64,000 nucleotides of DNA from an uncultured Acidobacteriota bacterium (GTDB taxonomy: Bacteria; Acidobacteriota; Vicinamibacteria; Fen-336), in NCBI GenBank assembly GCA_963742595.1, contig CAVUMT010000001.1, positions 1,767,633-1,831,632 of the forward strand. Direction: 5' to 3'. The position numbers and the translations under genes were made by a program. Every line of letters begins with the position of its first letter. Positions within the stretch are counted from its first letter, which is position 1. The notes under the pieces are model-generated. The model had not been told where the DNA came from and did no database searches. It saw only the letters and a program-made list of their open reading frames with translations. Positions 1-60,903 of this stretch are shown here, in pieces.

Positions 1-29
1 TGAGCGACGCCACGGATTCCGGCCCCCGG

Positions 30-425
30 GTGGAGCTCGACCTCGTCTGGGAAGGCGATCTCCGCTTCCGCGGCCGCTCGGAGGGCGTCGAGCTCGTGCT
101 CGACAGCGACGGGCGGAAGGGAGCCTCTCCCGTCCAGGCCCTCGCGTTCGCGCTCGCGGGCTGCATGGCCATCGACGTCGTCCACATCCTGCGCAAGGGA
201 CGCCTCGACTTGCGCACGCTCCGCGCGGAGCTTTCCGCGGAGCGGGCGCCCCGCGACCCCAAGCGCCTCGTGCGGGCGCGCCTGCACTTCCGCCTGACGG
301 GTGCTTTACCCGCGGAAAAGGTGGAGCGGGCGATCGCCCTTTCGCGCGAGACCTATTGCTCCGTCTGGCACTCGCTGCGCCCGGACCTCGACTTCACGAC
401 TTCGTTCGAGGTGGCCGCGTCGTAG
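30..425 (+). CDS. OsmC/Ohr family peroxiredoxin-like protein (GTG start)
   Basis: 131-aa ORF. Conserved OsmC-like core around the motif SPVQALAFALAGCMAIDVV. Intact reading frame. Confidence 0.8.
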   Translation: MELDLVWEGDLRFRGRSEGVELVLDSDGRKGASPVQALAFALAGCMAIDVVHILRKGRLDLRTLRAELSAERAPRDPKRLVRARLHFRLTGALPAEKVERAIALSRETYCSVWHSLRPDLDFTTSFEVAAS

Positions 426-491
426 GAGCCCCGCCGCGCGGCGACATGCTCGCCTTTCCGCACGAGACGCGGTACCGTTGTCGCCGTATCC

Positions 492-1628
492 ATGGCGGAG
501 GAAGACCGAGCGCCCCCGGACGGCGGAACGACTTACCGGTGGTTCCTGGAAAGCCTCGTGGAGGGCGGGCGCCAGTTGCGTCGGATCGCCGTCTTCCCGC
601 TCCCCTATCGGATCGGCCGTCGTCCCGGCCTCGGCCTCACCCTTCCCTCGGACGGGGTGTCCAAGGACCACGCGGAGATCTACGTCGACGACGGCAGCCT
701 GCGCGTGCGCGACCTCGGCAGCAAGAACGGCACCTTCCTGAACCGCATGAAGGTGGAGGACTCGGCGATCCAGGAGGGCGACATCCTCCACTTCGCGCAG
801 CTCGAGTTCCGGCTGGGGCGGCAGGAGATCGACGAGCCGACGGACGAACCGATGCGCGAGCCCCCGACCCTCTCCATCTCCAACATGGCGCTCCCCAAGC
901 AGTTCCTGGAGCAGACGCGGGAGCTTCCGGAGCTGCTCAGCAAGGGAATGGTGGCGACGACCTTCCAGCCGCTCGTGAGCCTGCCCGGGGAGTCGATCGC
1001 GGGTTACGAAGTGCTCGGACGGGGCAGCCACCCGCGCCTTCCCGAGGACCCGGCGGAGCTCTTCCAGCTCGCGGCGGGAATGTCCACGGAAGCCGAGCTG
1101 TCGCGTCTCTTCCGCCGGGCGGCGCTCGAGGCGGTCGCCGGCAAGCGGGACCTGGGGGCGATCTTCCTGGACACGCACCCCGCCGAGCTCGAGCAGGAGG
1201 GCGACCTCGTGGCCTCGCTCGCCGAGGCCACGGAGCGATACCCCGACTTGAAGCTCGTCCTCGAGATCCACGAGGGCGCCCTCGCCGACCCCGCCAGCAT
1301 CGACGGCCTGCGCACCCAGCTCGCCCGTATAGGCGTGGGGCTCGCCTACGACGACTTCGGGGCGGGGCAGGCCCGCCTGCTCGAGCTGGCGGAGGTGCCC
1401 CCCAACTACTTGAAGTTCGACATCCGCTTCGTGCACAAGATCGACCAGGCCCCCCCGTCGCGTCGCCAGCTCGTGGCCTCGCTCGTCTCGGTGGCCCGCG
1501 ACCTCAAGGTCTACACGGTGGCCATGGGCATCGAGAGCGAGGCCGAGGCCGACGTGTGCGCCAAGCTCGGCTTCACCCACGCCCAGGGCGATCACTACGG
1601 CAAGCCCAGGACCGCGGACGAGCTGTGA
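492..1628 (+). CDS. FHA domain - EAL domain protein (putative phospho-Thr-regulated c-di-GMP phosphodiesterase)
   Basis: N-terminal FHA-like segment (GSKNGTFLN...ILHFAQLEF). C-terminal EAL-domain motifs (YEVLGRG, LEIHE, AYDDFG, KFD). Intact 378-aa ORF. Confidence 0.85.
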   Translation: MAEEDRAPPDGGTTYRWFLESLVEGGRQLRRIAVFPLPYRIGRRPGLGLTLPSDGVSKDHAEIYVDDGSLRVRDLGSKNGTFLNRMKVEDSAIQEGDILHFAQLEFRLGRQEIDEPTDEPMREPPTLSISNMALPKQFLEQTRELPELLSKGMVATTFQPLVSLPGESIAGYEVLGRGSHPRLPEDPAELFQLAAGMSTEAELSRLFRRAALEAVAGKRDLGAIFLDTHPAELEQEGDLVASLAEATERYPDLKLVLEIHEGALADPASIDGLRTQLARIGVGLAYDDFGAGQARLLELAEVPPNYLKFDIRFVHKIDQAPPSRRQLVASLVSVARDLKVYTVAMGIESEAEADVCAKLGFTHAQGDHYGKPRTADEL

Positions 1629-1712
1629 CGCGGTCGTGAAGAGCGACGAGATGCTCCACCCCTCCTCCTCCTCGCTTTCGCCTGGAAGGTCGGGACCGAG
1701 CTCCTCTTCCCC

Positions 1713-2057
1713 ATGACTGGAGACTCCGTCTGGGAGTTCATCGAGCGCGGAGGCAGCTACGGAGCGCCGCTCCCTGCTGATCCTCGTCCGGACCGCGCGG
1801 GCGAGCACGCGGCCTCGGTCCTTCGAAGGGGTCGAAGGCGACGGAGACGAGAGCGCGTCAAGCCGCCAACACGCCGTCGCGCTCTTCGGGTCGAGGACGA
1901 GCGCCTTCTCGTAGTCGGCCCGCGCCGAGCGGTGGAGCTCGCTCCCAAGGAGTTCGACCTCTTGTGCGCGCTCCTCGCCGCGCGGGGGCGGCGGTGCCTA
2001 CGGAGTACCCGGATGGAGAGACGCTTGGGGAGCAGTAGCACATCGCGTGGGGCATGA
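1713..2057 (+). pseudogene. possible degenerate OmpR-type winged-helix DNA-binding fragment
   Basis: 114-aa ORF containing ...LAPKEFDLLCALLAARGRRC..., reminiscent of the trans_reg_C domain. No receiver domain and a low-complexity Arg-rich N-terminus. Weak. Confidence 0.2.
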
Positions 2058-2060
2058 CCG

Positions 2061-3155
2061 TCACAGCGACAGGCGCGGGTCGCGTCCGTCAAACCGCAAC
2101 CGTCGCTCCACCAACAGCTGGACCACGATGTCGGGTCGGGCGTCGCGCACCTCCTCGTCGACCCAGAGCTTGGTCGGCGGGTGCGCAACGACGCCAGGGA
2201 GATACGCCGCCCAGACGTGGGGCAGCACTTGGTACGAGGAATCCGTGTAGACCCAGATCCTCAGCTTCCTCTGGAAGGCCGGCAGGACGAGATCGGCTCT
2301 TGGACTCAGCTGCCAAAAGGTGTCTGAGAACATCGGCGCCAGGTTCAGCATCGTAGCCAGATCGCCACCGCCCGTTCGAGATTGCTGGATGGCGAGGTCG
2401 CCCTCGTTTGGGATGATCAGATCCGGATGGTCTCGGCTGAGCACGTTCATGATCGCGACCAGCCCATGGAGTGCCCCCACCTGGTTCCAATGTGAATCGG
2501 TTCGATAGTAGACCTCCGGTCGCTGCTTGCCGGCCCAGAGTACCTGCGTGAGGTCGAGAAACGAGCCGTCGGGCGCGGGTGTGAGGCGCGCGGCCAGCTG
2601 CTCGAGTGGTTTGCCCCTCCCAACCTGGGTCAGGGCAGCCGGGAGCCATTCCGGATATATGCTGGACTTCTCGGGCACCACGACAAATAGATACCGCCCG
2701 CCCCAGCCGCTGACGAGATCCCTGCGCGTCAGGATCATGTCGGCAAGGACGTCCACTTTCCTTCGGGGCAGGGGCCGACTTCGGCGTGCGTCGGCCATGG
2801 TGTCCAGGCCCGGGGTCCCGGTGGAATCGTAGAAGAGCCAGCCCCCGCGGCCGAGCACGACATGCGACACGGGCGATGCGTGCAAGCCGAAGACGACGAG
2901 ACGGTTGTAGGCTCGCACCGCGGCGTCCCGGAGACCGACGCGATCCTGCACAAAGGCCTCCACGGCGGCCGGCCAAGCGCGCACCTCGGTACGCGTCCGG
3001 GGCATGCCGGGCCACTCGCCGGCCTTGCGTTTCTCCGCGTCAAGACTCACGACTCCCCGGCTCCACTGAGCCAGCGGCAGGCAGAGGGCCACGAGCACTG
3101 TGACGATGAATGCGCTCTGTAGGTGCCGCACGGACGGCAACGCTCGTGGGTCCAC
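2061..3155 (-). CDS. AlgJ/AlgX-like periplasmic polysaccharide O-acetyltransferase (SGNH-like, DSHW motif), membrane anchored
   Basis: 364-aa ORF with N-terminal TM anchor (AFIVTVLVALCLPLA) and the AlgJ/AlgX signature YYRTDSHWN. Starts 3 nt after the upstream MBOAT gene stop. Confidence 0.75.
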   Translation of the reverse strand: MDPRALPSVRHLQSAFIVTVLVALCLPLAQWSRGVVSLDAEKRKAGEWPGMPRTRTEVRAWPAAVEAFVQDRVGLRDAAVRAYNRLVVFGLHASPVSHVVLGRGGWLFYDSTGTPGLDTMADARRSRPLPRRKVDVLADMILTRRDLVSGWGGRYLFVVVPEKSSIYPEWLPAALTQVGRGKPLEQLAARLTPAPDGSFLDLTQVLWAGKQRPEVYYRTDSHWNQVGALHGLVAIMNVLSRDHPDLIIPNEGDLAIQQSRTGGGDLATMLNLAPMFSDTFWQLSPRADLVLPAFQRKLRIWVYTDSSYQVLPHVWAAYLPGVVAHPPTKLWVDEEVRDARPDIVVQLLVERRLRFDGRDPRLSL

Positions 3156-3158
3156 AGC

Positions 3159-4721
3159 TCAGAACCGGTAATAGATGAACGGGCTGTAGGTGCCCGCGAG
3201 CACCTTCAACAGGCTCAAGCCCAATAGCACGATGCACGCCATGGCAATACCCCCCGCCTCGAGCGGACCCCAATGCGGCGGCCAACTGGCGATCACCACT
3301 CGCAGCCGTGAGGGCGACTCTCTCATCAGGCGGCCGTTCCACCATGGAATCGAGAGGGTCACGCCGACCGCCAGCGCGATCAGGATCAGAGGTGACGAGA
3401 AGACACCCCACGTGTACTCGCCCGTGAAGTCGGGATGGTGGCCGAACATCGCCGCCGTGTAGTCGCCCGCCTGGGGCAGTGTCGTCGCACGGAAGATGAC
3501 CCAGCTGAACAGAATGACCGTGAGCGTGTAGAGACGCTCCAGCGGTTGCCGGAGCCAGGCGCCACGCGTCCCGACGACTTCGCCCTGTGGCGGCCTGCGG
3601 AACACCCGCTCGATCACGATAAACGTGCCGTGGTATAGACCCCAGGCCAGGAAGGGCCAGCCCGCCCCATGCCAGAGGCCACACAGTACGAAGACCAGGT
3701 AAAGGTTGAGGACGGTATGCGCGGAGGATCCCCGATTGCCGCCCAAGGGGATGTAGAGATAGTCCCGGAACCAAGTCGACAACGACACGTGCCACCGCCG
3801 CCAGAACTCCGTGATGGAGCGGGAGCTGTAGGGATGCAAGAAGTTCTCAGGGAACGTGAAGCCCATCATGCAGCCCAGTCCGATGGCCATGTCGGAGTAG
3901 CCGGAGAAGTCGTAGTAGATCTGCACGGCGTACGCCACGGCTCCGAGCCAGGCCGCGGGCGTCGAAAGCGCCGCCGCATTCACGCCGAAGACCGCGTCGG
4001 CGGCAACGGCAGCCGTGTCGGCAATCAGGACCTTCTTGGCGAGACCCAAGGCGAAACGGCTGGCGCCGTAGGCCATCTGGGTCCGAGTGATGACGCGCTC
4101 CTGGAGTTGGGCCGCGATTTCCCGATAGCGAACTATCGGGCCGGCGACCAGCTGGGGAAACATCGTCACATAGCACGCGAAATCGACCAGGTTCCGGATG
4201 CCTCGTGTGTCGCCCCGGTACACATCGATCGTGTAGCTCATGGATTGAAACGTGTAGAAGCTGATGCCGATGGGGAGGCTGATCTGGACGATCGAGTGCC
4301 ACTGCCACGCCTGAAGCCCGCTCGCCCCGAGCAGCTGGTTGAGGGCGCTCTGCCCGAAGTGGAAGTACTTGAACCAGGCCAGGAAGCCGAGGTTGCAGCA
4401 CAAAGACGCCACGAGAGCGACACGCTGCCGTCGGCTGCGCAATGTCCCCGAGCCGCGATCCTCCTGCCCCCTGCGGCGAAAGTCCCTTTCGATCGCCCAG
4501 CCCGCCGCATAGTCGATGACGATGGACAGGATCATGACCCAGGTGAGGAGTGGCTCGCCCCACGCGTAGAAGATCACGCTCGCTGTGAGCAGGAAGCCGT
4601 GGGTCAGCATGCGCATCGGCGCGCGATCGCCGCCGTGCTTCTGGATGAAGAAGAGCGCCCAATAGACGCCGAGGACGATCGGCAGGTAGACGAACAAGAA
4701 GATGGGAGAGCTGAATACCAT
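3159..4721 (-). CDS. MBOAT family membrane-bound O-acyltransferase (AlgI/DltB-like)
   Basis: Multi-TM protein; true start at the internal Met MVFSSPIFLFVYLPIVLGVY (ATG at complement 4721). MBOAT motifs FWRRWHVSLSTWFRDYLYIPLGGNR and conserved His. The ORF-track extension to 5072 is upstream read-through. Confidence 0.85.
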   Translation of the reverse strand: MVFSSPIFLFVYLPIVLGVYWALFFIQKHGGDRAPMRMLTHGFLLTASVIFYAWGEPLLTWVMILSIVIDYAAGWAIERDFRRRGQEDRGSGTLRSRRQRVALVASLCCNLGFLAWFKYFHFGQSALNQLLGASGLQAWQWHSIVQISLPIGISFYTFQSMSYTIDVYRGDTRGIRNLVDFACYVTMFPQLVAGPIVRYREIAAQLQERVITRTQMAYGASRFALGLAKKVLIADTAAVAADAVFGVNAAALSTPAAWLGAVAYAVQIYYDFSGYSDMAIGLGCMMGFTFPENFLHPYSSRSITEFWRRWHVSLSTWFRDYLYIPLGGNRGSSAHTVLNLYLVFVLCGLWHGAGWPFLAWGLYHGTFIVIERVFRRPPQGEVVGTRGAWLRQPLERLYTLTVILFSWVIFRATTLPQAGDYTAAMFGHHPDFTGEYTWGVFSSPLILIALAVGVTLSIPWWNGRLMRESPSRLRVVIASWPPHWGPLEAGGIAMACIVLLGLSLLKVLAGTYSPFIYYRF

Positions 4722-4854
4722 GCGGGACGCTCGACCCGGGGCTCCCAGGTCCTCGGCTCGATCCCCCCGATCGCGCAGCGCGTACTTTTGCACAGTGCTC
4801 ACCGACGGACAACCGCTACCGCCTCCCCGGCGTACCGTGTTCAGGCGTTCTTGG

Positions 4855-6130
4855 TCAACGCCCCCCCGGCCACCCAGGGGCGCTCCGTGGAATCTCCCTG
4901 AGCAACGCCTTGCGGAACGGCTCGTAGTCCACCTCCGTCGAGTGCCGGGGCGTGCGCATGAACGTCCGAAGGGTCGTGCGCGCCTCCTCCGCGACGCGCG
5001 ACTCCAGGTCCGCGGGCAGCCGGTAGCGGCCCACGATGGCGTTGGCCACGAGCTGGCCCTGCAGCTCGGCAAGGGGCCAGATGCAACCGACGGGCTGCAA
5101 GAGGCCGATGAAGAAGAGGCTCCGGAGCCGCGGGTGGAAGCAGCGCAGGTAGAGGGGGACGGGGCCGCTCGAGAAGTCGACGAGCGAGCGGTCCAGGAAG
5201 GGGAACGTGATCCGGAATCCCGTGGCCGCGATCACGGCGTCGAATTCCTCGACGCGATCCGTCCGCGAAGCGGACGGATTTCTCTTCAAAGCCGGCCACA
5301 TCCGGCCGAGGGTGAATCCTTCCGTGTCGAATGAAATACAGCAGCTCCGAGTTCACGACCGGATGTGACGAGAGGAATCGGTGGTCCGGTCGGGGGAGAC
5401 CGTAACGCTCGAAGCTCCCCGTCACGAGGCGCAACAGCACGACTCGAGGAGCCGGGCCCGCACGGGGCGCGGCAGGAAAAGGATGCCTCGAGTGGAGCAG
5501 CGTCCGACGGCAAGCCCGAACAGGAACTTGGGGACGAAGTGAGTAGCCCCGACGCATGCTGATCCCGGTGAAGGCAGAGACTCTCGCGGTCTCGACCGCG
5601 ATGTCGCAAGCGGAGTTGCCTCCGCCGACCACGAGCACCCGGCGGTCCCGGTAGGGGGCCGCGCTCTTGAAGGCATGGGAGTGGACGAGCTCCCCCGTGA
5701 AGCGCCCGGGATAGTCCGGCATGCGGGGGTCCCAGTGATGGCCGTTGGCGACGAGCAGGAAGTCGAACCGCTCCGCCGACCCGTCGCCGAGCGTGACGCG
5801 CCACCCTTCCCCGTCGGAACGGCTCTCACCACCTCCGTTCCGAAACGGATGTGGGGTAGCACGTCGAAGCGCCGCGCGTAGCCCTCGAAGTAGGCCTGCA
5901 GCTCCCGGTGGCCGGGGTAGTCGGCCTGCTCCGGCGGCCACGGGTAGTCCGAGTACTGCGAGAGGGCCTTGGAGCTGATGATGTGCGTCGTCTCGAAGAC
6001 GCTGGAGTGCGAGGGTCCGGGATCGAAGACCCAGTTGCCGCCCACGCGGTGGTTGCGGTCGTAGACGACCACGTCCCGGAGGCCGGCCTGGAGCAGGTGC
6101 TTGGCCGCGGTGATCCCGGAAGGACCGGCG
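4855..6130 (-). pseudogene. flavin-containing monooxygenase (FMO-like), split over at least three frames
   Basis: FAD GxGxxG (CVIGAGPSGITAAKHL) in one frame. NADPH GxGxxG (VLVVGGGNSACDIAVE) in a second. C-terminal FMO segment (FFIGLLQPVGCIWPLAELQ) in a third. At least 3 frameshifts. Confidence 0.6.
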
Positions 6131-6476
6131 CCGATGACGCAGCAGCGGGGCACGCCGGAACGGCTCAGCCGACGGGGGTGATGGGCCAGGGACGGCTGAC
6201 GTAGTCGGCGATCGGTGAGGAGGATGAGGATGGCGAGGAACACGAAGCCCCGAGCAGAGCACGAGGGTCGTGAGGCGCGGGCTGTAGCGCACGTGCATGA
6301 AGAAGAGGATCACGAGCGTCGCCTTGATCGACGGCGATGCCGAGGGCGATCGACGGTGTTGAAGGGGCCGAAGTCGCGGCCCGCGCGCCTGGACGGTGAC
6401 CACGGTGAGCGACGGCGAGAGCCAGGAAGATGACCGAGGTAGATCGCGCCAGGAGACGACGTGCGTGGCTCGGCCA

Positions 6477-7240
6477 TCAGTGGTGCCCGATCAGGTAGAG
6501 GAGGGGGAAGAGGAAGATCCAGACGATGTCCACGAAGTGCCAGTAGAGCCCGGTGATCTCCACCGGGGTGTGCCAGGCGGGCGAGAAGCGGCCCCGCGCC
6601 GCCATCGCCCGCGACGATCGGCCAGGATGGGGATGCCGATGATCATGTGAAGCGCGTGGAGGCCGGTCATCCCGAAGTAGAGCGAGAAGTAGATCTGGCG
6701 CCTGGCGGCCCCTGATCCGGCGGCGAGGTGCGAGCGACGGTGGGGTCGAAGCGGTTGCCCGGCACCAGGCACCCCGCATGCGGCCCGTCCCCGAGGCAGG
6801 GTGCGATCTTCTCGCGGTACTCGACGTACTTCACCCCCAGGAAGACGCCGCCGAGGAGGATGGTGAGGACGATCCAGACGACGATCGCCTTCGCTCTTCC
6901 CGCACCGCCGCCGAGTGGACGGCCATGGCCATGGTGAGGCTGCTGCCGATGAGCACGAGGGTGTTGAAGACGCCGAGCTTCCAGACGAGGTGTGGCTCGC
7001 CGCGGCGAAGGCGTCGTAGTAGAGGTAGCGGTAGACCGCGTAGGTCGCGAAGAGGCCGCCGAAGAACATGATCTCCTGGACGATGAAGACCCACATCCCG
7101 AGCGTGCGCGCCTCCTTCTGCTGCTCGAGGTCCGCGAAGTGGTGGACGAGCGGGCCGTGCGCGGCGTGTCCGGACACCGTCGCCTCAGCCATGGAGCGCT
7201 CCCTTGCGAGGGTCGGGTAGTCGTAGACCTCTTCGCGCAC
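6477..7240 (-). CDS. coxC: cytochrome c oxidase subunit III (frameshifted)
   Basis: [36 protein letters not shown]-terminus; middle ([24 protein letters not shown]) and C-terminus ([24 protein letters not shown]) in other frames. Confidence 0.8.

Positions 7241-25051: not shown

Positions 25052-25052
<1 letters not shown>
25017..25052 (+). terminator. rho-independent terminator (11-bp GC stem, TTCG loop, T6 run)
   Basis: agggGCGCGGCC ttcg GGTCGCGCCCC followed by TTTTTTCTT immediately after the ompA-like stop. Confidence 0.8.
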
Positions 25053-26281
<1,229 letters not shown>

Positions 26282-26364
26282 GACCGTCTCCCATTCTCGG
26301 CCGGCGGCGCACGAGGGGCAACGCCGTGCTTCACACGCGGAGCGGGCATGCTCCAAAATCGCTC

Positions 26365-26393
26365 TTGACAGTTTGGAGGTCGGTACCTACATT
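26365..26393 (+). promoter_or_regulatory. near-consensus sigma70-type promoter (TTGACA-17 nt-TACATT) driving a short transcript toward the tRNA island
   Basis: ctcTTGACAgtttggaggtcggtaccTACATTgggg in the AT-richer rtcB / tRNA-island intergenic region. Exact 17-nt spacer. Confidence 0.55.
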
Positions 26394-27646: not shown

Positions 27647-27760
27647 TCGCTCACGCTTGTCAACCAAGGCGTGAGCTACGGTTGGCAAGCCACGCAAAGG
27701 TTGTCCGCCGTAGCATTCGCGAAGGCGGACCCAACATTCCACTCTTTCGTCAGCACTCTC
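27647..27760 (+). other. highly structured leader region between the tRNA array and the MopB gene (stacked stable hairpins)
   Basis: Hairpin gctcacgc-N12-gcgtgagc (27647-27676). Hairpin gctacgg-N26-ccgtagc. Hairpin tccgcc-N14-ggcgga. Downstream tRNA T-arm remnant ggcggttcgattgaatcga at about 27797-27815. Confidence 0.4.
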
Positions 27761-27923
27761 AGACGGCGCTAAGAAGCTGAAAAGCGGTGCCGTTACGGCG
27801 GTTCGATTGAATCGATTTCCGTCGTACGCGATTCCTTCCGGGAAGAACAGCAGGTGCTGCGGCCACTCGGTACGCTTCACCCTCTGGAGACCGAGGCGAT
27901 CGGACCTACAATGGCAGCAGGCC

Positions 27924-29951
27924 ATGTCGATCCAGATCGTTCGCGGCGCCTGCGGGCACGACTGCCCGGACACGTGCAGTTGGATAGTGGAAGCGCAGAA
28001 CGGTACTGCCGGGAAGCTGTACGGCGACCCGGCGCATCCGTTCACCCGCGGCACCCTCTGCGCCAAGGTTAACCATTATCTCGAGCGCGTCTACCACCCC
28101 GATCGCGTCCTCCATCCGCTGAAGCGCGCGGGCCGCAAGGGCGAGGGACAGTTCGTCCGCGTAACCTGGGACGAGGCGCTGACCGAGATCGCGGCGCGGT
28201 GGAAGGCGATCGTCGAGGAATCGGGCGCCGAAGCCATCCTGCCCTACAGCTCGGCGGGCGTGCAGGGGCTGATTCAGCAGGCCTCGCTCGACATGCGGCT
28301 GTTCGGGTCGATGGGGTGCAGCGGCCTCGATCGCAACATCTGCGGCGCGGTCGCTTCCGCGGGCCTCACGTCCACGATTGGAACCGGGACCGGAATCGAT
28401 CCGGAGGAAGTTGTCCATAGCCGGTACGTCGTGTTGTGGGGGACGAACACGATCGTCACGAACCTCCACTTCTGGCCGTTCGTGCGCGAGGCGCAGCGTC
28501 GGGGCGCGAAGATCATCGTGGTGGATCCGGTCCGAACCCGCACTGCGGAAGCGGCCGACTGGCACCTTGCGATCAAGCCGGCCAGCGACGCGGCGCTGGC
28601 GCTCGCGATGATGCACGTCATCGTCCGCGACGGCCTGGTGGATCACGAGTACGTCTCGCGGTATGCGGTCGGGTACGAGGCGCTCGCGGAGCACGTGCGG
28701 CAATACGCTCCGGAGAGCGTGGCGAACACGGTCGGCCTGCCGGCGAGCGACATCGAGCGATTCGCGCGCGAGTACGCGACGACGCAGCCGTGCCTGCTGC
28801 GGCCGCTCATCGGCCCCGAGCACCATCGCAACGGCGCGATGCAGTTCCGTACGATGGCCTGCCTTCCGGTACTGACCGGAGCATGGAGGCATCGCGGCGG
28901 CGGCCTCGCCCGGTCCACGCACAAGCTGCAGTTCGCGGTGCTGGCCAAGGATCGCGTGGAAATGCCGGAGGTGCACAAGCCCGGCGTCCGCGTGCTGAAC
29001 ATGCGCGATCTCGGCAAGGATCTGTGCGACCTGCGGCCACCGATCCGATCGCTCATCGTCTATGGCGCCAATCCGATGGTGTCGATGCCGAATCAGAGCC
29101 GGATTCGCGAAGGCCTCCTGCGCGACGACCTGTTCGCGGTCGTGCAAGACCTGTTCGTCACGGACACCGCGTTGTACGCCGACTACGTGCTGCCGGCCAC
29201 GAGCCAGATCGAGCATCTGGATCTGTCACCCGCCTGGGGGCACCTGTATCTGGCGTTGAATCGCCCGGCCATCGCGCCGCGCGGCGAGTCGGTGTCGAAC
29301 ACCGAGCTCTTCCGACGGCTGGCACGGGCGCTGGGCCGCACGGAGGCGTACTTGTTCGAGAGCGACGAGTCCATGCTGCGCGCGGCGCTGGCGAGCGGGC
29401 ATCCGTGGCTCGACGGGATCACGTACGAACGGTTGTGGAAACAGGGATACGCGCGTCTGAACCGTCCGGAGGACTGGCGCCCCTTTGCAAACGGCGGGTT
29501 CCCGACGCGGAGCGGGAAGGCAGAGCTCTACTCCGAGCCGCTGCGCGAGGCCGGGCACGACCCGCTGCCATCGCCCGGCGAGATTCGATCGAACGGCGGC
29601 CTGCAGTTGATCACCGGGAAGCAGCTGCACTTCCTGAATTCGGGATACAGCAACCAGGACCGGCATCGCCGGCGGGCGGGCGAGTTGTTCATCGAGATCC
29701 ACCCCGACGACGCGAGGACGCGAGGGGTCGCCAACGGGGATTACGTGTCCGTCCGAAACGGGAGCGGCGAAGTGCGCGCCGTCTGCCGTGTATCGGACCG
29801 CGTCCGGCCGGGCGTGGCCTGGATGCCATTCGGCGGCTTCACGGATGCGGGTGGCAAGCGCCTCTCGGTCAACGTCCTCACCCAGGAGGAGCCGACCGAT
29901 TGGGGCGGCGGAAGCGGTTTGTACGATGCGTTCGTAGAGGTTGAGCGCTAA
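27924..29951 (+). CDS. molybdopterin-dependent oxidoreductase, MopB family (assimilatory nitrate reductase / formate-dehydrogenase-like catalytic subunit), cytoplasmic
   Basis: N-terminal 4Fe-4S motif CGHDCPDTCSW. Molybdopterin_binding and molydop_binding domains throughout. 675 aa, intact. No Tat signal and no partner subunit genes. ATG at 27924; the ORF-track TTG at 27807 lies inside the tRNA-remnant region. Confidence 0.75.
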   Translation: MSIQIVRGACGHDCPDTCSWIVEAQNGTAGKLYGDPAHPFTRGTLCAKVNHYLERVYHPDRVLHPLKRAGRKGEGQFVRVTWDEALTEIAARWKAIVEESGAEAILPYSSAGVQGLIQQASLDMRLFGSMGCSGLDRNICGAVASAGLTSTIGTGTGIDPEEVVHSRYVVLWGTNTIVTNLHFWPFVREAQRRGAKIIVVDPVRTRTAEAADWHLAIKPASDAALALAMMHVIVRDGLVDHEYVSRYAVGYEALAEHVRQYAPESVANTVGLPASDIERFAREYATTQPCLLRPLIGPEHHRNGAMQFRTMACLPVLTGAWRHRGGGLARSTHKLQFAVLAKDRVEMPEVHKPGVRVLNMRDLGKDLCDLRPPIRSLIVYGANPMVSMPNQSRIREGLLRDDLFAVVQDLFVTDTALYADYVLPATSQIEHLDLSPAWGHLYLALNRPAIAPRGESVSNTELFRRLARALGRTEAYLFESDESMLRAALASGHPWLDGITYERLWKQGYARLNRPEDWRPFANGGFPTRSGKAELYSEPLREAGHDPLPSPGEIRSNGGLQLITGKQLHFLNSGYSNQDRHRRRAGELFIEIHPDDARTRGVANGDYVSVRNGSGEVRAVCRVSDRVRPGVAWMPFGGFTDAGGKRLSVNVLTQEEPTDWGGGSGLYDAFVEVER

Positions 29952-46420: not shown

Positions 46421-46505
46421 GCTCCTCGAACGATGCGGAGGAGCGTCCCCGTGGCCGTCGGCGTCGCTCACGCGGCGTATCTTACACGCCGGATATACTG
46501 CCCCG

Positions 46506-47274
46506 GTGACGCTGCTCTCCGCGGTCCTCATCACGCAGAACGAGGAAGACAAGCTCGCCGACGCGATGGAGAGCGTGCGCTTCTGCGACGAGATCGTGGT
46601 GGTGGACTCGGGGTCCGACGGACCGCACGCGCGAGGTCGCGCAGGCGGGAGGCGCCCGCGTGCTCGTCAACGCTCCCTGGCCGGGCTTCGTCGCCCAGCG
46701 CAAGTCGCGGTGCGACGCGGCCCGCCACGACTGGGTCCTCGCCCTCGACGCCGACGAGCGGGTGACTCCGGGCCTGCGCGAGGAGATCGAAGGGCAGCGC
46801 GCCCGCGGCTTCGCCCACGCCGGCTACCGCATCCCCCGCGTGGCCTTCTACCTCGGCCGCTGGGTGCGGGGCACGGACTGGTATCCGGACCCGCAGGTCC
46901 GCCTCTTCGACCGGACGCGGGCGCGATGGGAGGGCGACCTCGTCCACGAGTCGGTGCGCGCGCACGGGCACGGTGGGGCGTCTGCACGGCGAGCTCGCTC
47001 CACTACCCCTACGCCGACATCAGCGACCACCTGCGCAAGATCGACCGCTACACGACGCTCTGGGCCCGCCAGTTCTTCGCGGCGGGGCGGCGTACGGGAC
47101 CGCTCGACATGGCCTCGGCCGGGCTCTGGGCCTTCTTCCGGAACTACGTGCTGAAGCGGGGCTTCCTCCTCGGCACTCCCGGGCTCACGATCTCCACCCT
47201 GAACGCCTACTACACGTTCGTCAAGCTCGCCAAGCTGCGCGAGCTCGCGCCAGGTCCGCCCGCTCGCCCGATGA
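46506..47274 (+). CDS. family 2 glycosyltransferase (LPS-core / KdtX-like), frameshifted
   Basis: GTG start. VLITQNEEDKLADAMESVRFCDEIVVVDSGS... DxD region in a second frame, C-terminal TM segment in a third. Confidence 0.6.
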
Positions 47275-48344
47275 GGGTGCTCCACGTGGACACGGCCCGC
47301 ACCTGGCGCGGCGGGCAGAACCAGGTGCTCCTCACGGCGCTCGGACAGGCCGCGCGCGGCCACGAGGTCGTGGTCGCGTGCCGGTCGGGGCGGGGCTCTC
47401 GAGACGCGCGCCCGGGACGAGGGGATCGCGGTGCGGCCGCTGCCGTTCCACGGGGACCTGTGGCCGCCCGCGGTCTGGGGTCTGGCGCGAGCGCTCCGCG
47501 AGGCGCGTCCGGACGTCCTGCAGCTCCACGACCCGCATGCCGTGGGAAGCGGCTGTGGCGGCGGCGCGGATCGCCGGGGTGGCCACCGTGGCCACCCGCC
47601 GCGTCGACTTCCGGTTGCGGGGCCCCCTCTCCCGGGGGAAGTACGGACGCTGCGAGCGCGTGATCGCGGTGAGCCGCGCCATCGCCTCTGTCCTGGAGGC
47701 GGACGGCATCCCCGGCGAGCGCGTCGCGCCTCGTGTACGAGGGCGTCCCCGACCGGGAGCCTCCCGCGGGCGGGGACGAGGCGCTGCGCGCGCTCGGCGT
47801 GCCCGAGGGCGCCCCCGTCGTCGGGAACGTGGCCGCGCTCACCGGCCACAAGGACCACGCGACGCTGCTCGACGCGGCCCAGGTCGTCCTGCGCCGGCGC
47901 CCGGACGTGCGCTTCGTGATCGCGGGAGAGGGACCGCTGCGCGGCGAGCTCGAGTCGCGCGCCCGCGAGCAGGGGCTCGAGGGTCGCGTGATCTTCGCGG
48001 GATTCCGCAGAGACGTCGACCGGCTGCTCCCCGCCTTCTCCGTCTTCTGCCTCTCTTCGCACCTCGAGGGACTGGGAACGAGCCTCCTCGACGCCATGGC
48101 CTTCGGACGGCCGGTGGTGGCGACCGCCGCGGGAGGCATCCCGGAGGCGGTGGAGGACGGCGTGACGGGGATCGTGGTCCCTGTCCGCAACCCGGTGGCG
48201 CTCGGGCAGGCCCTGCTCGACGTGCTCGGCGACGCCGGCCTCCGCCGGCGTCTGGGGAGCGCGGGCCGCGCGCGATTTCTCGAGCGGTTCACGGCGGACC
48301 GGATGGTGGAGGAGACCCTGGACGTCTACCGGGGGACGCGGTGA
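47271..48344 (+). CDS. family 4 glycosyltransferase (frameshifted)
   Basis: MRVLHVDTARTWRGGQNQVLL N-terminus. C-terminal GT4 motifs FAGFRRDVDRLLPAFSVFCLSSHLEGLGTSLLDAMAFGRPVVATAAGGIPE. Confidence 0.65.
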
Positions 48345-49309: not shown

Positions 49310-50242
49310 CTAGACCGCGCCCTCCGCACGCTCGAGAAGCACGCGGAGCTCGTCGCGCACGGCGGGAGCCGCGGGCAGGAGAGGCGAGCGCACGGAGCCG
49401 CCGCGGCGGCCCGCGAGATCCATCGCGACCTTCAGACCGGCGACGCCGTGCGTCGCGGTGACGGCGACGGCGAGAGGCGAGAGCGCCTCCTGCAGGCGGC
49501 GCGCCCGCGAGTGGTCGCCCGATTCGAACGCGCGGTAGAGCGCGGCCACCGGACGAGGCGCGCAGTTCGCGACGGCGAGGACGCCTCCCGGGGAGCCGAC
49601 GCAGAGGGCGGGATAGAAAACCGGTCCCGAGCCGCACAGCACGGCGAACGACGAGGGGACCGAGGCCACGATCCGGCCCATGAGTCCGAGGTCGCCGCTG
49701 GATTCCTTCATGCCGAGGATCCGGGGATTCGCGGCGAGAGCGGGTGCCAAAGCCACGGGCCAGGCGAGGCCCGTGAAGACCGGGACGGAATAGAGAAGGA
49801 CGGGGATCGGCGAGGCTTCGGCCACGGCCTCGAAATGGCGTCGAAGGGCCTCCACCGACATCTGCGGCTTGTAGTAGCAGGGCGTGAGGACGAGGGCCAT
49901 GTCGACGCCGGCGTCGGCCGCCGTGCGCGTGAACGCGATCGTCCCCCGGGTGCTCTCGAGCCCCGTTCCCGCGAGGAGAACGCGCCGCCCCGCGTGCTTG
50001 CGCGCGGCGCGCAGTAGCGCCACCTTCTCGCTCTCCTCGAGGCTCGCCGCTTCGCCGTTCGAGCCCAGCGCGAGGTAGCCCGCGAGGTCGTTCTCGCCCA
50101 GGGACTCGAGGTTCGCCTCGAACGACGCGAGATCCAGCCCCCCGTCGGGCAGGAATGGGGTGACGAGGGGGGGGATGACGCCGCGAAGGCGTTCCCGCCC
50201 TCCCGCCGTCTCACCCGACGGGGAGGGAGCCGGAGAAGGCAC
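49310..50242 (-). CDS. DapA/NanA (dihydrodipicolinate synthase) family lyase
   Basis: ...VIPPLVTPF...LALGSNGEAASL... Intact 310 aa. Confidence 0.6.
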   Translation of the reverse strand: MPSPAPSPSGETAGGRERLRGVIPPLVTPFLPDGGLDLASFEANLESLGENDLAGYLALGSNGEAASLEESEKVALLRAARKHAGRRVLLAGTGLESTRGTIAFTRTAADAGVDMALVLTPCYYKPQMSVEALRRHFEAVAEASPIPVLLYSVPVFTGLAWPVALAPALAANPRILGMKESSGDLGLMGRIVASVPSSFAVLCGSGPVFYPALCVGSPGGVLAVANCAPRPVAALYRAFESGDHSRARRLQEALSPLAVAVTATHGVAGLKVAMDLAGRRGGSVRSPLLPAAPAVRDELRVLLERAEGAV

Positions 50243-50245
50243 CGG

Positions 50246-58907: not shown

Positions 58908-60125
58908 TCAGCGGTCGCGGCCCGACCGCTCACGGAGGAGGTCGCTCAGGCGGGGGTCGTCGGGGGCGACGAGGGCCAGCTCCGCGATGGCCTTTCGGGC
59001 CTCCGGGTCCGGTGCGCCGGGCCGCGCCCGATGAAGGAGCGCGGCGATGCGGGCCTCCGCCTCCGGGCTGCGGCGGGCCTCCGGGCGTCGGCCCGCGGGC
59101 CGTCGCCGGACGGTGTTCCAGAGGGCCTCCGCGGCTTCCCGGCTGTCGGGGTCGATGGCGAGCGCGGCCCGAAGCTCGTCCGCCGCGGCGTCCGCCTGCC
59201 CACCGTCCTGGTGCTTCTTGCTCCGAGCCACCAGCTCGCGCACGCGCGCCCGGTCGCTGTCGTGGAGCGCCGCGGCTCCGGCGCGGGGCATTGCGGACCG
59301 GCCGTGCGACCGGCGAAGGGCGCCGTGGACGCGCCAAAGCTCGCGTCCGGCCTCCTCGAACGACGGGTAGCGCTCCTCGGGGGCCTTGCGCAGCATGCGG
59401 TGCACCACGAGGGCGAGACGCGCCGGGAGCTCGGGGTTCACGGTGAGGAGCGGGTCCGGCTCCTCGGAGATGATCTGGTAGAGCACGCCGTGGAGGCTCT
59501 TCCCCCGGAACGGCTTCTGCCGGCACAGGAACTCGTAGAACACCGCTCCCGCGGAGAAGATGTCCGTGCGGTTATCCAGGGGCTTGCCCATGGCCTGCTC
59601 GGGCGACATGTAGTCGGGAGTCCCCAGGATGATCCCCCGGCGGGTGATGGTCTCGAGGGTGGCCACGCGAGCGAGACCGAAGTCCAGCACCTTCACCCGG
59701 CCCGCGCCGGTGACGAAGATGTTGGCGGGCTTGACGTCGCGGTGCCAGACGCCTTTCGAATGGGCGTATCCGAGGCCGTCGCAGATCTGGGCGAGGATGT
59801 GGACGCGGTCGGCGAGGGGCACGTCCGTCCCGCGCTCGAGGAGTGCGCGCAGGTCGTCCCCCTCGAGCAGCTCCATCGCCATGTAGAGGTGGCCGTCCGT
59901 CTCCCCCACGTCGAAGACGGAGACGATGTTCGGATGGTTGAGCCGGCCGATCGCCTCCGCCTCTCGCGCGAAGCGGTGGTGCAGATCGTCGTCCGCCCGG
60001 AGGTCGGCGGAGAGCATCTTGAGCGCCACCACGCGGTCGAGGCTCGTGTCGCGGGCCCGGTGGACGATACCCATGGCCCCTTCGCCGATCTTCCCGAGGG
60101 TCTCGTAGCGGCCGAACCGGGCCAT
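58908..60125 (-). CDS. Hanks-type Ser/Thr protein kinase
   Basis: GxGxxG (GKIGEGAMG), VALK, HRDVKPANI, DFGLA, GTPDYMSPE. Intact 405 aa with Pro/Arg-rich C-terminus. Confidence 0.85.
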   Translation of the reverse strand: MARFGRYETLGKIGEGAMGIVHRARDTSLDRVVALKMLSADLRADDDLHHRFAREAEAIGRLNHPNIVSVFDVGETDGHLYMAMELLEGDDLRALLERGTDVPLADRVHILAQICDGLGYAHSKGVWHRDVKPANIFVTGAGRVKVLDFGLARVATLETITRRGIILGTPDYMSPEQAMGKPLDNRTDIFSAGAVFYEFLCRQKPFRGKSLHGVLYQIISEEPDPLLTVNPELPARLALVVHRMLRKAPEERYPSFEEAGRELWRVHGALRRSHGRSAMPRAGAAALHDSDRARVRELVARSKKHQDGGQADAAADELRAALAIDPDSREAAEALWNTVRRRPAGRRPEARRSPEAEARIAALLHRARPGAPDPEARKAIAELALVAPDDPRLSDLLRERSGRDR

Positions 60126-60141
60126 TGCCCGCGGGGCCGCG

Positions 60142-60903
60142 CTACTCCGTGTAGCGCAGCAGGACGACGGTGACGTTGTCCTTGCCCCCGGCTTCGTTCG
60201 CGGCGCCGATGAGCTTGCCCGCCGCTTCTTCGAGCGAGGGCGCCATCGGGTGGAGGAGACGCTGGATCTCCTCGTCCGCGATCATCGCGTGGAGGCCGTC
60301 GGAGCAGATGAGGGCCACGTCGCCCACCTTGAGCTTCTGCTCGACCACGTCCAGCTCGATCGACTCCTTGGCCCCCACCGCCTTGGTGATCACGTTTCGG
60401 AGGGGGTGGCGCTCGATCTCGTCCGAGTTCAAGATGCCTTCCCCGAGGGCGGCGGAGACCCAGGAGTCGTCCTTGGTCACCTGCGTAAGAGCGCCCGCCC
60501 GCATCAGGTAGCAGCGGCTGTCCCCCGCCGACCCCACGGTCATGACGTCTTCGGAGACGAGGGCGGCGACCACCGTCGTCCCCATGCCCGTGTACTCCTC
60601 GCGGTTGTCCGCGGCCCGGAAGACCTTCTTGTTCGCGAGCTTGATCGCGGTCTTGATCCGGTTGCCGTCGTAGGAGAGGTTCACGTCCAGCCCGTAGGGC
60701 CAGGTGATCTCCTTCTCCTTGTGGCTCCTCTCGATGAAGGAGGCGAGGGTTTCGATGGCCATCTGGGAGGCCACCTCTCCTGCGTTGTGACCGCCCATGC
60801 CGTCGCAGACGGCGTAGAGGCTCGGCTCGGGGGCGACCAGGAAGTTGTCTTCGTTGAGCTTGCGGCGGCGCCCTACATCCGACCGGCCAAACGCCTCGAG
60901 CAT
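60142..60903 (-). CDS. PP2C-family Ser/Thr protein phosphatase
   Basis: ...RKLNEDNFLV...CDGMGGHNAGEVAS...DGLHAMI..., intact; immediately downstream of the kinase. Confidence 0.8.
   Translation of the reverse strand: MLEAFGRSDVGRRRKLNEDNFLVAPEPSLYAVCDGMGGHNAGEVASQMAIETLASFIERSHKEKEITWPYGLDVNLSYDGNRIKTAIKLANKKVFRAADNREEYTGMGTTVVAALVSEDVMTVGSAGDSRCYLMRAGALTQVTKDDSWVSAALGEGILNSDEIERHPLRNVITKAVGAKESIELDVVEQKLKVGDVALICSDGLHAMIADEEIQRLLHPMAPSLEEAAGKLIGAANEAGGKDNVTVVLLRYTE

Follow-up and report, generated by a model that had tools for sequence, protein, structure and literature searches.

Gene cassettes of the algI/algJ type have long been recognised beyond the alginate producers, and lateral transfer of the algI/algJ cassette was reportedly described by Franklin et al. 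in 2004. The mechanism of cassettes that combine a membrane-bound O-acyltransferase (MBOAT) with an SGNH-type partner is now understood; their acceptor polymers are mostly unknown. One such pair of adjacent genes, encoding an MBOAT and an AlgJ-like SGNH protein, is described here from a 64,000-nucleotide stretch of contig CAVUMT010000001.1 (the window). The template for its mechanism is Campylobacter jejuni PatA, which auto-acetylates the tyrosine of its C-terminal motif in a histidine-dependent manner, PatB then accepting the acetylated hexapeptide as donor (Anderson et al., PMC12148441). The catalytic role of the conserved MBOAT histidine has been described in PatA and DltB, and the acyl-shuttle mechanism has been argued to extend to AlgI, WssH, CcsH and PatA1 (PMC12148441). 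In the partner proteins AlgJ, AlgX and PatB1, the Asp and His of a DxHW block and the Ser of an xDS block constitute the catalytic triad, the nucleophilic Ser of PatB1 lying in its KDS block, and Gram-negative PatB belongs to the DUF459/PatB family of SGNH proteins (PMC9487903).

A first-pass annotation, made from the letters of the window, had read the two genes as a glycan O-acetylation module without alginate genes. Open reading frames (ORFs), Pfam matches and the junction all agree with the gene boundaries, the minus strand and the 3-nt spacer that it gave (Table 1), and the reading as a module is supported by family membership, catalytic residues, the tail motif, predicted fold and gene order. 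On these grounds the pair is a real and probably functional glycan O-acetylation module. [quoted passage not shown]

At the junction the sequence is ...TTC ATC TAT TAC CGG TTC TGA gct GTG..., and given the 3-nt spacing the MBOAT and SGNH genes are likely to be one co-translated operon. In the spacer upstream of the MBOAT gene (4722-4855) no sigma-70-like promoter, no terminator above background and no Rfam element was found. The GC content at third codon positions peaks in one phase throughout both genes, with no phase switch. As the adjacent 14 kb are full of frameshifts, the possibility that the pair is a non-functional relic or an assembly artefact in a decaying region had to be considered. 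This is highly improbable. Both ORFs are full length when compared with homologues at other loci, all the catalytic residues are retained, and the ratio of nonsynonymous to synonymous substitution rates (dN/dS) is 0.33 for the pair against a 95%-identical copy in the metagenome contig L085. The pair is thus under purifying selection.

Several hydrophobic segments were seen in the MBOAT by hydropathy. In a sequence search of the PDB its core matched the DltB structures 8jem and 6bug at 2e-28, the best among solved structures, and His351, in the tripeptide WHG, aligns with the conserved histidine region of DltB. The protein terminates in ...AGTYSPFIYYRF, an exact FxYxxF motif containing Tyr517. 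Of 60 MBOATs encoded upstream of an AlgX-like gene, 59 end in the same motif, mostly as ...YNPFIY(F/Y)RF. The window MBOAT is 72% identical over the full length to that of locus L003.

MBOATs take varied donors, and DltB, the best PDB match, moves D-alanine. A different acyl group could therefore be carried, the acceptor could be a lipid-linked compound or a protein instead of a glycan, or the SGNH partner could act mainly as an esterase; AlgJ has esterase and not transferase activity in vitro (PMC9487903). We consider all of these very unlikely. No dltA/dltC/dltX-type genes lie nearby, and the FxYxxF tail is part of the MBOAT itself, as in the acetyl-transferring PatA/AlgI type and unlike DltB. 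In addition, all the characterised partners of the AlgX/DHHW family act on glycans with acetyl (PMC9487903).

ALGX was the only Pfam family called in the SGNH protein (score 62.2 against a cutoff of 26.5), and the Pfam DHHW model (PF14286) gave no match to it at E<=0.01. The membrane anchoring proposed in the first-pass annotation agrees with two predictions, a hydrophobic segment at residues 8-36 and one long N-terminal helix modelled over residues 7-32 by AlphaFold2 (AF2). The DSHW motif it had noted lies at residues 220-223 and precedes Ser306, giving the permuted H-S block order. An alignment of 59 sequences from many phyla has just seven invariant positions, G102, Y167, D220, H222, W223, D305 and S306. 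D220/H222/W223 correspond by alignment to TDTHW in AlgJ and TDHHW in PatB1, and D305/S306 to the KDS block of PatB1. The pair has every catalytic and shuttle residue of the published MBOAT-SGNH mechanism, namely His351 and Tyr517 of the MBOAT and Asp220, His222 and Ser306 of its partner. The periplasmic domain of the SGNH protein is basic (isoelectric point 9.6), at most a faint hint at an acidic polymer.

A reaction scheme can be proposed by analogy with PatAB, DltBXD, AlgJ/X, PatB1 and WssI. Acetyl-CoA would acetylate Tyr517 of the MBOAT in a His351-dependent step. The acetyl-tyrosyl peptide would then swing to the membrane-anchored AlgJ-like partner, where Ser306 of the Asp220/His222/Ser306 triad would become acetylated, and the SGNH protein would finally acetylate a hydroxyl on the acceptor glycan. 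Like PatA1/PatB1 or CcsH/CcsI, the pair would form a minimal system of two proteins, without helpers of the AlgF/AlgX type.

The SGNH protein was compared with proteins of known structure by sequence, by profile and by predicted fold. A single-sequence phmmer search of the PDB gave AlgJ (4o8v) as top match at 3e-8. With the family profile the matches were PatB1 (4e-26), AlgJ (7e-25), the DHHW protein 4nzk (4e-8) and AlgX (1e-5). An AF2 model built from a 21-sequence alignment had a predicted local distance difference test score (pLDDT) of 85 and a predicted template modelling score of 0.78; seven close homologues alone gave an unusable model with a pLDDT of 42. Ten significant matches were obtained with the AF2 model in Foldseek, all of them AlgJ, AlgX, 4nzk or PatB1, with AlgJ best at 1.4e-11. 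The Gram-negative PatB structures 7TJB and 8TLB were not among the significant HMMER or Foldseek matches. By profile and predicted fold, the SGNH protein thus resembles AlgJ and Bacillus cereus PatB1 about equally and does not resemble Gram-negative PatB. This structural comparison had been suggested at the outset; the likeness to Gram-negative PatA/PatB that was then drawn turned out to be weak, since PatB is a DUF459 protein with no significant match in sequence or fold.

AlgJ is the top PDB match both in phmmer and in Foldseek, and the JGI annotation of homologues reads 'alginate O-acetyltransferase complex protein AlgJ'. These names are family-level transfers and not tests. That the two genes are true AlgI/AlgJ orthologues engaged in genuine alginate acetylation is extremely improbable, for the identity to AlgJ is about 21-22% and PatB1 scores equally in the profile search. 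The host, moreover, appears Acidobacteriota-like. Gene content, which was assessed by Pfam among the window fragments scanned, argues in the same direction: alg8/44/K/E/G/X/L/F were not found, and a tblastn search of the 64-kb window for a further MBOAT or AlgX-like gene found none. The 'stand-alone' status of the pair has this same scope, the fragments scanned within the 64 kb, as have the statements on missing genes that follow. The scan showed no genes of the alg, bcs, wss, pel or Ape type, nor any match to a BcsA-type synthase, to Bcs accessory families or to AlgF, which bears out the earlier statement that alginate, Pel, cellulose and peptidoglycan-specific partners are absent nearby.

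The distribution of the cassette was examined in sequence collections and in a scan of a genome collection. In an index-free search the SGNH protein matched 8,021 clusters at 50% identity with E<=1e-3, and 3,968 with E<=1e-10; a profile re-search of an index of 5.8 billion proteins added almost nothing, and the family size rests on the index-free search. The genome scan gave 80 loci, including Desulfobacterota, Acidobacteriota, Planctomycetota, Bacteroidota, Burkholderiales, Spirochaetota and Clostridia. In about 70 of these 80 an MBOAT gene lies immediately upstream on the same strand, its product 35-48% identical to the window MBOAT, and the gap or overlap between the two genes is usually a few bases. 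As so many distant loci have the same gene order, the pairing is not due to chance. No conserved third partner was revealed when neighbours were clustered in 82 loci, the commonest neighbour family (an ABC ATPase) being present in 18. One apparent neighbour cluster was rejected, its members being ORFs antisense to the pair itself. At some loci, for instance the betaproteobacterial ones, the genes flanking the pair encode a sigma-54 response regulator, LptD and an M3 peptidase. Two MBOAT-SGNH pairs, a tandem duplication of the cassette, are present in L051, L072 and L074. Two AlgX-like genes, a duplication of the SGNH partner alone that resembles the AlgJ plus AlgX arrangement, occur in L006, L037, L046, L077 and L081.

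At a minority of distant loci the pair has a surface-polysaccharide context, its neighbours including GT2, GT4, ABC-transporter, sulfotransferase and epimerase genes as well as asparagine-synthase-like ones. As the first-pass annotation had cautioned, the substrate cannot be read from the sequence itself. Our best guess, weakly inferred, is that the acceptor may be a polysaccharide that is secreted or lies at the cell surface and is encoded elsewhere in the genome (of the exopolysaccharide, capsule or O-antigen type), and neither peptidoglycan nor alginate. Such a polymer is favoured because all the characterised AlgX/DHHW-type partners act on polymers of this kind, because a subset of the related loci is embedded in glycan clusters, and because the Gram-negative peptidoglycan route uses another SGNH family.

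Several observations weigh against this interpretation of the pair. The genomic context does not indicate an acceptor, as polysaccharide genes were not found within ~40 kb of the pair, and synteny beyond the two genes is not conserved. In L001, the nearest species-representative genome, no MBOAT gene lies within 10 kb of the one for the SGNH homologue. All the characterised SGNH partners are just 12-22% identical to the window protein in structural alignments. Finally, the Gram-negative synthase-dependent systems for alginate and cellulose use the additional proteins AlgF/AlgX and WssF/WssG, which were not found among the fragments scanned.

The solitary position of the pair among housekeeping and respiratory genes, as expected for a universal acceptor, would also suit peptidoglycan. 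Here the pair would be a functional equivalent of PatA/PatB, acetylating the C6 hydroxyl of N-acetylmuramic acid in the periplasm of a diderm host; glycan-synthesis neighbours are likewise missing at many of the distant loci, and the FxYxxF motif is common to the MBOAT and PatA. We nevertheless judge peptidoglycan O-acetylation unlikely. The matches of the SGNH protein are all of the AlgJ/AlgX/DHHW type and not of the DUF459/PatB family to which Gram-negative PatB belongs, and no Ape-type esterase gene is adjacent. The subclade is also rare, with six close homologues, and lacks the MBOAT beside the L001 homologue, unlike a core cell-wall function.

Cellulose was weighed in the same way. WssI and CcsI resemble AlgJ and each have an MBOAT partner (PMC10302187; PMC12148441), the best fold match of the window protein is of the AlgJ type, and the Gram-positive CcsHI is likewise a bare two-gene module. 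That the pair is a module like WssH/WssI or CcsH/CcsI, serving a bcs-type synthase elsewhere in the genome, is still quite unlikely, as bcs and wss genes and equivalents of WssF/WssG were not found, and the EAL neighbour that might suggest cellulose under the control of cyclic di-GMP (c-di-GMP) is not conserved.

The latter gene encodes an FHA-EAL protein, and its co-location with the pair had been taken in the first-pass annotation as a hint at exopolysaccharide. This hint was not upheld. The FHA-EAL gene and the pair are not co-transcribed, because the genes are convergent. Their adjacency was seen only in L085, in which the spacer between them differs by ~370-400 nt, and in L001, L003 and L004 DUF418/ROK genes take the place of FHA-EAL. 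Comparison by tblastx revealed no shared flanks beyond the pair. As the EAL neighbour is not conserved, it carries no information on the substrate. No Rfam element, c-di-GMP riboswitches included, was found in window positions 1-7000. The ~370-400 nt missing from L085 correspond to 1645-2044, between the convergent SGNH and FHA-EAL genes. A 114-codon ORF at 1713-2057 on the plus strand looks like a remnant of the C-terminus of a winged-helix regulator and has no Pfam match.

The subclade to which the pair itself belongs is Acidobacteriota-like and small, with six proteins at 55-94% identity and one 50% cluster (P0004), after which identity falls to 43% and 34%. The MBOAT and SGNH genes are retained together in L003, L004 and L087. 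The only species-representative genome with a close SGNH homologue is L001, the Acidobacteriota metagenome-assembled genome (MAG) MFD02416.bin.1.351. Its homologue, at 10001-11116 in L001/L005, is 55% identical, the gene upstream encodes an MshEN/T2SSE-type ATPase, and the protein may be an orphaned partner. A DUF418 membrane-protein gene lies directly downstream of the SGNH gene on the opposite strand at 11172-12443 in L001, 1647-2918 in L002 and 3529-4794 in L003. ROK-family genes follow in L001 and L004, a synteny not common to the window. It is conceivable, at a low probability, that this Acidobacteriota-associated subclade is a minimal diderm system of the AlgJ type, free of AlgF/AlgX or WssF/WssG helpers, that acetylates a polymer with no known MBOAT/AlgX-family route. 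Peptidoglycan could then be a candidate, with an AlgX-family protein in a route analogous to that of DUF459 PatB, and so could some acidobacterial exopolysaccharide not yet characterised.

Table 1. Features of the MBOAT-SGNH pair and of neighbouring genes in the 64-kb window.
Feature	Position	Strand	Size or content	Basis
MBOAT-family membrane O-acyltransferase gene	3159..4721	minus	520 amino acids; stop codon included in span	Pfam MBOAT E=8e-31, MBOAT_2 E=8e-6
AlgX-family (AlgJ-like) SGNH-like O-acetyltransferase gene	2061..3155	minus	364 amino acids; stop codon included	Pfam ALGX (PF16822) E=8e-17
Spacer between MBOAT stop and SGNH GTG start	3156..3158	minus	3 nt (gct)	Read from sequence
Codon of MBOAT His351 (WHG), conserved catalytic histidine	3669..3671	minus		Aligned with DltB 'fWHG'
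C-terminal acyl-shuttle hexapeptide FIYYRF (FxYxxF)	3162..3179	minus	Tyr517 codon 3171-3173	
SGNH N-terminal hydrophobic segment, predicted single membrane anchor	3048..3134	minus	Residues 8-36	Hydropathy
SGNH DSHW block	2487..2498	minus	Residues 220-223 (Asp220, His222, Trp223)	Asp and His of triad
Codon of SGNH Ser306, predicted nucleophile	2238..2240	minus	In YTDSSY	Alignment
Upstream spacer, FMO-like gene end to MBOAT start	4722..4855	minus	~134 nt	
FHA-EAL protein gene	492-1628	plus, convergent with pair		Pfam EAL 7e-39, FHA 2e-15
FMO-like gene	~4855-6162	minus, same strand as pair	Frame interrupted	Pfam scan
GT2 and GT1 glycosyltransferase genes	46443-48344	plus	Beside truA, uppS, cdsA, dxr, rseP	

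To the left of the pair an OsmC-like ORF was read in frame 3. On the right, on the same strand, lie the FMO-like gene, genes for caa3-type cytochrome oxidase subunits and SCO1, and alternative-complex-III-like genes (NrfD, 4Fe-4S, multihaem cytochrome). Further to the right are genes of housekeeping or miscellaneous function, for a pyridine-nucleotide oxidoreductase, RtcB, a molybdopterin oxidoreductase, an SPFH protein, PQQ-propellers, an S9-type peptidase region and a BNR protein, then RseP, Dxr, CdsA, UppS, TruA, DHDPS, beta-lactamase-fold proteins, TonB receptors, a Ser/Thr kinase, PP2C and PdxJ. The GT2 and GT1 genes, 42 kb from the pair, are the sole glycan-synthesis genes seen in the window.

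The FHA-EAL and broken FMO neighbours noted at first are present as described; the breakage is not specific to the FMO-like gene and belongs to a 14-kb frameshifted respiratory block. From 4855 to ~18500 on the minus strand the frame switches repeatedly inside single Pfam domains (FMO-like, cytochrome oxidase I/III/IV and alternative-complex-III-like genes); COX1 occupies at least three frames and FMO at least two. The zones of frame switching, checked for nanopore-type error, are mostly without homopolymer runs of four or more. The switches may reflect either local assembly error or real decay of the respiratory cluster. The pair, the EAL gene and several long ORFs elsewhere are intact, as seen for RtcB (25052-26386), the molybdopterin oxidoreductase (27714-29951) and the kinase (58908-60281).

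GC content dips to 0.64-0.66 over 2001-5000, against ~0.70 in the flanks and 69.7% in the whole window, and at third positions it is ~0.80-0.87 in the pair, lower than the 0.90-0.98 of the EAL gene next to it. These low values and the lack of conserved flanks are suggestive of, and compatible with, lateral acquisition, and the values fall within the range of other genes of the window. No flanking repeats or mobile-element signature above background was found around the pair. As to the host, the DHDPS-family gene at 49313-50245 on the minus strand encodes a protein 73% identical to one from a Vicinamibacteria MAG, its sole taxonomically named homologue; metagenome proteins are up to 91% identical. 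This match, together with the CarboxypepD_reg-TonB receptors present in the window, suggests an Acidobacteriota-like host, probably an uncultured soil bacterium close to the Vicinamibacteria.

The significance of the pair is modest, and its presence would be no surprise to a specialist. It does illustrate that the names 'AlgI/AlgJ' in organisms that are not alginate producers are family-level labels and not functional assignments, and that the FxYxxF tail combined with the D-x-H-W and D-S blocks is a reliable marker of a working module. Given a cultured Vicinamibacteria-like carrier, the pair would be a handle on which acidobacterial envelope glycan is O-acetylated.

Among the known systems, AlgI/AlgJ of Pseudomonas likewise combines an MBOAT with a following SGNH-like protein of the ALGX family that is membrane-anchored and circularly permuted and has a DxHW block, and AlgJ is the top match of the window protein in the PDB, both by structure and by single sequence. 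The two differ in that identity is ~21-22%, the host is probably an acidobacterium, and the alginate synthesis and export genes, AlgF and AlgX were not found. In place of an alginate operon, OsmC-like, FHA-EAL, FMO-like and cytochrome oxidase genes surround the pair. The nucleophile block also differs, being xDS(F/S) in the window protein, as in PatB1, and GTSY in AlgJ.

PatA1/PatB1 of B. cereus, of the DHHW family, acts on the secondary cell wall polysaccharide and is also a bare MBOAT and SGNH pair. PatB1, the top profile match, shares with the window protein the (K/x)DS nucleophile block and the permuted fold. It differs in having TDHHW where the window protein has TDSHW, in an ~80-residue insertion (PMC9487903), in its Gram-positive host and in its acceptor, and identity in the structural alignment is 12%. 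By the strong profile match the relation to PatB1 is real, but by its sequence features (TDSHW and TDS) the window protein lies outside the definition of the DHHW family.

PatA/PatB of Neisseria and Campylobacter provides the mechanistic template, with its MBOAT histidine, FxYxxF acetyl-tyrosine shuttle and anchored periplasmic SGNH protein (PMC12148441). PatA and the window MBOAT are homologous; PatB differs, having the canonical block order and belonging to the DUF459/PatB family. No Ape esterase gene is adjacent to the pair, unlike the clustering typical of PatA/PatB. WssH/WssI and CcsH/CcsI, which were compared by description only, also combine an MBOAT with an AlgJ-like partner, CcsHI as a two-gene system (PMC10302187; PMC12148441). 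Both sit in cellulose synthase operons, whereas no bcs/wss/ccs genes were found here. DltB/DltX/DltD offers the closest solved MBOAT core and the same acyl-tyrosine shuttle logic, but its shuttle motif is on a separate microprotein, DltX, its donor is D-alanyl-DltC, and its SGNH partner DltD is of another family. Placed beside these systems, the pair is an ordinary, uncharacterised addition to a very widespread type of MBOAT-SGNH cassette.

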